Below are positions 860 to 1,561 of a stretch of DNA of 1,914 bases, piece by piece. Position numbers and translations under genes: made by a program. The notes below the pieces were generated by a model. That model saw only the letters and a list, made by a program, of their open reading frames with translations. It was not told where the DNA came from and searched no databases. The first letter of the stretch is position 1, and each line of letters begins with the position of its first letter. This stretch comes from Escherichia phage ECO95 1-6-1: sequence record OR845616.1; one strand, 5' to 3'.

Positions 860-1561
860 ATGGCAGACCCGTCACTTAATAAGCCTGTCGTGGTTCAGGC
901 TACACGCATTGATGCATCTATTCTCCCTCGTAACATATTCAGTCGGTCTTACCTTCTGTATGTCATAAATCAGGGTACTGATGTTGGCGCTATTGCGGGA
1001 AAGGCAAACGAAGCAGGGCAAGGCGCCTATGACGCGCAGGTAAAGAACGATGAGCAGGATGTTGAGCTTGCAGACCACGAAGAGAGAATTCAACAGTTAC
1101 GCATCGACGTAGACGACCATGAAATACGTATTACTGCAAATGCCAATGCAATTGCGGTACTGGATGTCAGACTAACCACGGCTGAAGGCAAAATAGTCAC
1201 CTTGCAGGCTGATGTCAGTGCTCTTGATGGTAGGGTTACGGCTGCTGAAAGCACTATTTCTTCATTGCAGGCTGATTACGTATCGAAGTCAGCAACTGCT
1301 TCTCAATCGCTGGCGTCACCTCTCAACGTGACAACGTCCTATTCAGTTGGCGGCACTAAAGTTATCGGTGCGCGACAGACAGGATGGACAGCAGCAACAG
1401 GCGCTGCGCTTCTCGGTGCATTCAACGCTAACCAGGCATACACGGTCAGTGCCACATATACGCAGTCTGAGGTATCAGCTATGGCTAACGGATTGCAGCA
1501 GGCGCGGCAGCGTATCAAAGCTCTCGAAGATGCAATACGAACTCATGGATTGATCAACTGA
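860..1561 (+). CDS. gp26: Tail needle protein, P22 gp26 family (trimeric cell-envelope-penetrating needle / portal-channel plug), complete, 233 aa
   Basis: ATG at 860, TGA at 1559..1561, 233 codons, the same length as P22 gp26. The N-terminus MADPSLN...[56 protein letters not shown] matches my recollection of the P22 gp26 N-terminal domain. The central part (about residues 60-145) shows hydrophobic heptad periodicity consistent with the trimeric coiled-coil core, and the C-terminus ends ...[19 protein letters not shown] Shine-Dalgarno lies 6 nt upstream of the ATG. Confidence 0.9.

Follow-up and report, generated by a model that had tools for sequence, protein, structure and literature searches.

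A knobless P22-type tail needle gene with an epsilon34-type tip and a mosaic structure

The stretch of DNA analysed here, called the window in the following, is 1914 nt long and is filled by three co-directional reading frames on the plus strand. The features of the locus are the following.

2 to 856, plus strand: 3' part of a gp10 orthologue (tail hub, head-completion protein), 284 codons and a stop codon; it continues beyond the left end of the window.
850 to 853, plus strand: GGAG, a putative Shine-Dalgarno-like motif for the needle gene, 6 nt before the needle ATG and within the end of the gp10 gene, read from the sequence (ctggagtaacatatg).
860 to 1561, plus strand: tail needle gene (gp26 orthologue), ATG at 860 and TGA at 1559-1561, 233 codons and a stop codon.
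1561 to 1914, plus strand: 5' part of a gp14 orthologue, 118 codons; it continues beyond the right end of the window.

The upstream reading frame matches the Pfam family PF11134 (Phage_stabilise) with E = 1e-184 at profile positions 186-469 of 469, and its counterparts in P22, Emek and epsilon34 are annotated as gp10 or head closure Hc3. On the protein level this part is identical to Emek and S.Kent (100%) and is still 97.5% identical to gp10 of P22, although its DNA shares only 81-84% with P22 at positions 301-600, compared to 89-94% on either side. The downstream reading frame is assigned to PF11039 (DUF2824, E = 4.7e-44) and shares 95.8% amino acid identity with gp14 of P22; in P22 and epsilon34 the counterpart is annotated as gene 14 or head morphogenesis. 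In the window the needle gene lies between gp10 and gp14, with PF11134 upstream and PF11039 downstream, and this order is also that of P22, Emek and epsilon34. The ATG of gp14 overlaps the stop codon of the needle gene (ATGA, 1559-1563), which suggests translational coupling. In the RefSeq record of Emek the start of gp14 is annotated 12 nt further upstream than in P22 and epsilon34.

An Rfam search of the window gave no match, and promoter- and terminator-like sites in the window are not in excess of shuffled sequence. Further ORFs within the needle gene, on the reverse strand or in alternative frames, were treated as chance ORFs; the +3-frame ORF at 1347-1553 is used only in a frameshifted database copy of the needle (P0125). 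The window is matched by 123 phage records, mostly from Salmonella Lederbergvirus, with S.Kent 1-2-1 (99.5% nucleotide identity) and Emek (99.0%) at the top, while the best match among E. coli complete genomes reaches 81.6%.

The preliminary description regarded the middle reading frame as a knobless needle of the P22 type, and the homology bears this out. The needle could be aligned without gaps to the P22 gp26 chains 2POH, 3C9I and 4ZKP, residues 1-232 on 1-232, with E values of about 5e-112 to 7e-112 (5.3e-112 for 2POH, over 1-232 of 233), and a further match is the HK620 needle 5BU5 (E = 2.7e-88). The protein family PHROG 1219 'tail needle protein' covers residues 1-233 of 233 (E = 3.6e-128). 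Used alone, residues 141-233 match positions 141-233 of the same family with E = 3.5e-49, which indicates a P22-type tip. A length of 233 aa is, as had been pointed out, that of P22 gp26 (233 aa) and below that of the Sf6 needle (282 aa). It is not the shortest class, as the needles of the phages L and ST64T comprise 212 aa, three heptads fewer.

We also looked for the knob itself. Pfam PF16532 'Sf6-type phage tail needle knob' gave no match in the needle, while the needle of Sf6, which served as positive control, was recognized with E = 8.7e-119. When residues 141-233 were compared with the Sf6 knob by BLASTP, no alignment was obtained at E <= 100. The family PHROG 1030 'tail needle knob' matches residues 1-126 only, which is the part common to both needle types. 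Together with the full-length match to PHROG 1219, the homology confirms ORF 860-1561 as an intact, knobless P22-type tail needle gene and an orthologue of gp26.

The libraries Pfam and NCBIfam hold no model for the P22-type needle, and only sub-threshold coiled-coil look-alikes (crescentin, tropomyosin, SMC) were found there. P22 gp26, run as a control, likewise gave only sub-threshold coiled-coil matches; the lack of a match therefore reflects a gap in the libraries and is not a sign of novelty. Because of the missing model, P22-type needles are labelled as 'hypothetical protein' or 'phage tail protein' in RefSeq genomes of E. coli and Salmonella. In the record of phage Dewey a knobless needle of 233 aa is labelled 'tail needle knob'.

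The preliminary description had proposed a layout of 860-1039, 1040-1279 and 1280-1558, i.e. residues 1-60, 61-140 and 141-233, and these limits agree with the boundaries given by Leavitt et al. 2013, who distinguish a helical core (1-140) and a tip (141-233) (PMC3741392). With the last part divided in two, the domains and their amino acid identities are as follows.

860 to 1039, plus strand: hub-binding (plug) domain, residues 1-60, binding predicted; 90.0% identity to P22 gp26.
1040 to 1279, plus strand: predicted trimeric coiled-coil shaft, residues 61-140, in the heptad register of P22; 77.5% identity to P22 gp26, 98.8% to SE1.
1280 to 1384, plus strand: linker or beta segment, residues 141-175, conserved; 88.6% identity to P22 gp26, 100% to epsilon34.
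1385 to 1558, plus strand: C-terminal helical tip domain, residues 176-233; 60.3% identity to P22 gp26, 98.3% to epsilon34.

Residues 3-64 match the 62-residue gp26 chain 8EAP_B with E = 1.9e-31. The best heptad register of the shaft is identical to that of P22, and 78% of its a/d positions are hydrophobic. Only one of the 18 substitutions relative to P22 in the shaft falls on the a/d core (V105L, which is conservative); the others are found at positions b, c, e, f and g. A monomer model was calculated with AF2 from the single sequence and, given its low overall values (pLDDT 66, pTM 0.34), served for secondary structure only. It comprises one continuous helix at residues 42-149, with block-mean pLDDT values of 85-96 over residues 61-130, strands of low confidence at 160-163 and 166-169, and helices at 178-187 and 202-228; within this low-confidence model no globular C-terminal domain is seen. 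The architecture is read from the ungapped 78% match to solved structures, to which the monomer model adds weak support, and a homotrimeric fibre is predicted from the 78% identity to the crystallised trimers. Residues 141-175 presumably correspond to the triple beta-helix of P22 gp26. We assume that the gp26 domain names triple beta-helix and inverted coiled coil can be applied to residues 141-175 and 176-233, respectively.

Over its whole length the needle differs from P22 gp26 by 51 substitutions in an ungapped alignment (78.1% amino acid identity). The distal region had been named beforehand as the part to compare for divergence. The alignment by domain reveals no uniform near-identity to P22 (90.0, 77.5 and 71.0% for residues 1-60, 61-140 and 141-233), and the block 141-233 is indeed the most diverged one. 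The divergence is not a property of that whole block, but is concentrated in the last ~58 residues (176-233), to which 23 of the 51 substitutions belong. The DNA of the needle gene shares 75.4% identity with P22, compared to 89.0% for the gp10 part and 94.4% for the gp14 part, and the lowest value of the window, 57%, is found at positions 1401-1500. The tip lacks four aspartates of P22 (D189N, D191N, D198A, D233N) and carries a net charge of +1 versus -2 in P22, as type-B tips do in general.

The low identity to P22 in residues 176-233 is due to the type of the tip, which is of the epsilon34 type (subtype B) and not of the P22 type (subtype C). Residues 141-233 are 98.9% identical to epsilon34, 74.2% to HK620 and 71.0% to P22. 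We assign the needle tip to subtype B of Leavitt et al. 2013, an assignment made by identity and not by rebuilding the published tree. The picture depends on the reference: in comparison to epsilon34, conservation is highest in the tip (98.9%) and lowest in the N-terminal domain (88.3%). This reversal is caused by the mosaic structure of the needle gene, and the N-terminal identity to epsilon34 is only 88.3% because codons 1-43 represent a phage-L-type allele.

As judged from the alignments, recombination has put the needle gene together as a mosaic, with an N-terminus of the L type, a shaft of the SE1 type and a tip of the ST104/epsilon34 type. The following blocks could be distinguished in the window.

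About 650 to 988, plus strand: phage-L-like block comprising the gp10 end and codons 1-43 of the needle (860-988), near-identical to L.
989 to about 1398, plus strand: SE1-like block, 99-100% identity to SE1.
From about 1399, plus strand: ST104/epsilon34-like block (tip: 1399-1560), with ST104 and epsilon34 as best matches.
1399 to 1418, plus strand: patch with all six needle-gene differences from S.Kent 1-2-1, five of them synonymous and the sixth T187A.

The nucleotide identity of codons 1-43 is 98.4% to phage L and about 77% to P22, epsilon34 and SE1. The end of the hub gene and the hub-binding N-terminus of the needle lie on one block, which fits a co-inheritance of the interacting pair. 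The gp10 gene is also mosaic; its middle part is epsilon34/L-like, and its first 120 nt in the window match only S.Kent and Emek among the panel phages.

The window differs from S.Kent 1-2-1 at ten nucleotides, which fall into two clusters, six at 1399-1418 and four at 1574-1584 near the beginning of gp14. All ten nucleotides of the window are those of the ST104 allele, and within the needle patch 1399-1418 the window carries the epsilon34 allele as well at all positions but 1402. Both clusters look like short gene-conversion patches rather than point mutations.

The same exchange is seen in the database. Representatives that share the N-terminal segment exactly show 11-12 differences in residues 176-233, and representatives within two differences of the window in 176-233 differ from it at 6-8 N-terminal positions. 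The analysis thus shows that the variability of the needle travels as recombining allele blocks.

How variable the tip is within the family was determined on a sample of close relatives. A broad protein search yielded 2793 clusters at E <= 1e-10; among the best 120 of the 2793, nearly every cluster with a name is a 'phage tail protein' of Salmonella enterica or E. coli. The sample comprises 114 distinct representatives of 233 aa from the 120 closest clusters and is thereby biased to close relatives. In these 114 sequences the mean column entropy is highest in residues 176-233 (0.51 bits) and amounts to 0.21-0.26 bits in the other domains, the lowest value (0.21 bits) belonging to residues 141-175. 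Mean pairwise identity is 77% in residues 176-233 and 89-91% elsewhere, and the variability peaks at residues 191-220. According to Leavitt et al. 2013 the tip domains of P22-type needles show differences of up to about 50%, and eleven sequence types can be distinguished, of which A (HK620), B (epsilon34) and C (P22) are the three common ones (PMC3741392). The 114 representatives confirm, for the sequences sampled, the observation of 2013 that the variable part of P22-type needles consists of the last ~58 residues.

Several unusual relatives were seen during the search. One protein (P0020, 243 aa) carries a tandem duplication of 10 residues in the shaft, which is not a heptad multiple. Two proteins of 212 aa (P0133, P0134) combine shaft deletions of 21 residues (three heptads) with a type-B tip. 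In another one (P0037, 232 aa) an unrelated N-terminal segment of 45 residues is joined to the same shaft and tip as in the needle described here. The cluster at 90% identity to which the needle belongs has 4284 members and is headed by gp10 proteins of 472 aa; this looks like a clustering artefact, perhaps via fused or mis-called gp10-gp26 ORFs.

A tip that is most variable throughout the family (0.51 versus 0.21-0.26 bits; 77% versus about 90% pairwise identity in the 114 representatives) could be under ongoing diversifying selection, either for escape from needle-recognising defences such as Tai or for the tuning of envelope penetration. Escape from TaiEcC is documented for P22 and HK620 mutants whose gp26 has substitutions in its C-terminal region (PMC11364771), and the lack of the four P22 aspartates in type-B tips with the resulting shift in net charge would fit the same idea. 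The substitution rates argue against it. In comparison to P22 the tip shows pS = 0.81, i.e. saturation, and pN = 0.24, which gives a pN/pS of about 0.3; values versus closer relatives, which are based on very few changes, are 0.07-0.33 and thus also well below 1. In the other domains of the needle omega versus P22 is 0.04-0.11. Furthermore, the variation consists of a few discrete old allele classes and not of many private changes, and the single residue that separates the tip described here from epsilon34, N210, is itself a common allele (52/114). With synonymous sites saturated and a pN/pS of about 0.3 there is no sign of a recent change of the tip. Its divergence is, as judged from these comparisons, that of long-diverged alleles under purifying selection which are exchanged horizontally. 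Diversifying selection on residues 176-233 may act in addition to this, which we consider rather doubtful.

Taking homology, tip type and mosaic structure together, we read ORF 860-1561 as the tail needle gene, orthologous to gp26, of a P22-like (Lederbergvirus) phage or prophage, with an epsilon34-type tip and composed as a mosaic of old alleles. We estimate the probability of this reading at about 93%.

A gene of this kind might also be left over in a defective prophage or belong to an assembly fragment, and no longer be used for virions. The window is a stand-alone contig of 1914 nt, and small P22-like remnants with a needle gene are present in many genomes (PMC3741392). The frameshifted copy mentioned above is a case from a 4.8-Mb chromosome: P0125 (230 aa) is identical to the needle up to about residue 190 and then continues in the frame of ORF 1347-1553, which makes it either a decaying prophage gene or the result of a sequencing error. 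In the window the needle ORF is intact, and both flanking frames are intact as far as the window reaches. The encoded proteins are 99-100% identical to those of Emek and S.Kent 1-2-1, which are isolated, plaque-forming phages, and the differences from relatives are mostly synonymous. A remnant is for these reasons improbable.

What the needle would do in the virion can be proposed from the experiments on P22. In that phage the trimeric needle closes the gp10 channel with its N-terminal end and keeps the packaged DNA in, the shaft is a three-stranded coiled coil, and gp26 is absent from virions after injection (PMC3741392). By homology to P22 gp26, three chains of the needle described here would form a thin fibre, of which the N-terminal ~60 residues would enter the gp10 hub and, once packaging is complete, plug the exit channel of the DNA. 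Residues 61-140 would form the trimeric coiled-coil shaft, residues 141-175 a short beta segment, and residues 176-233 a helical distal tip which is supposed to make the first contact with the cell envelope. During infection the needle would be released, so that the channel is open for ejection proteins and DNA. The tip may modulate the speed of DNA delivery without setting host specificity, and every segment of the needle appears to be under purifying selection.

The effect of tip changes on ejection behaviour, which had been raised for the distal region beforehand, was experimentally addressed by Leavitt et al. 2013 (PMC3741392). P22 still infected Salmonella when its tip (codons 141-233) was swapped for the knobs of Sf6 or HS1 or for the T4 foldon, and tip changes can slow the release of K+ (PMC3741392). 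Since the swaps are infectious and K+ release can be slower, the tip influences the kinetics of DNA delivery in P22 and not host specificity. This bears on the idea that the tip type determines host range or recognition of a secondary receptor, with the type-B tip as an adaptation to particular Salmonella serovars. The needle reaches out past the tailspikes and is expected to be the first part in contact with the outer membrane (PMC3741392), and the nearest relatives come from the non-Typhimurium serovars Kentucky, Haardt and Anatum. However, in view of the infectious tip swaps a role in specificity was judged unlikely by the authors, and subtype B is found in phages of E. coli, S. enterica and Cronobacter (PMC3741392). 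In our own sample type-B-like tips are seen among representatives from E. coli as well as among those from Salmonella. Specificity in the P22-like group lies in the tailspike, which also counts against a role of the tip in host range, and we regard such a role as very improbable.

The subtype-B tip, which differs from P22 at 23 of 58 residues and in its charge (+1 versus -2), might confer DNA-ejection kinetics or a sensitivity to needle-targeting defences such as TaiEcC different from those of the P22 type-C tip. We offer this as a tentative suggestion which is rather unlikely to hold. If it were true, the discrete tip alleles among the P22-like phages of Salmonella and E. coli would be functional variants under selection and not neutral mosaics. 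Beyond correct annotation the significance of the locus is small, as it encodes a textbook component of the P22-like virion with a catalogued tip variant.

Among the known systems P22 gp26 (PDB 2POH, 3C9I, 4ZKP; tip subtype C) shares with the needle the length of 233 aa, the heptad register and the gene order gp10-26-14. The needle of epsilon34 (YP_002533468), the type member of subtype B, also comprises 233 aa, has no knob and shows only one difference in the tip (T210N). Its overall amino acid identity is 93.1%, and it differs mainly in the N-terminal domain with only 88.3%. Most similar are the needles of S.Kent 1-2-1 (OR850876) with 99.6% amino acid identity and one difference (T187A), and of vB_SemP_Emek (NC_018275, YP_006560559) with 99.1% and two differences (T187A, T210N); both share the length, the three-part mosaic and the flanking genes. 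The exact protein sequence is on record for this contig only. Both distinguishing residues are common alleles (A187 in 98/114 and N210 in 52/114 representatives). The needle gene and its tip allele are thus already known and common, and there is nothing new in the tip variant. The HK620 needle (PDB 5BU5; subtype A) is likewise a knobless protein of 233 aa and homologous over the full length, but its identity is only 64-68%, with 52.5% in the shaft, where the alignment register is shifted by 14 residues, and 74% in the tip. The knobbed needles of Sf6 and HS1 (PF16532; PDB 3RWN, 4K6B) share a homologous plug domain (78% over residues 1-60) and the coiled-coil shaft, whereas they comprise 282 aa and end in a TNF-like C-terminal knob, which is unrelated to the needle tip described here.
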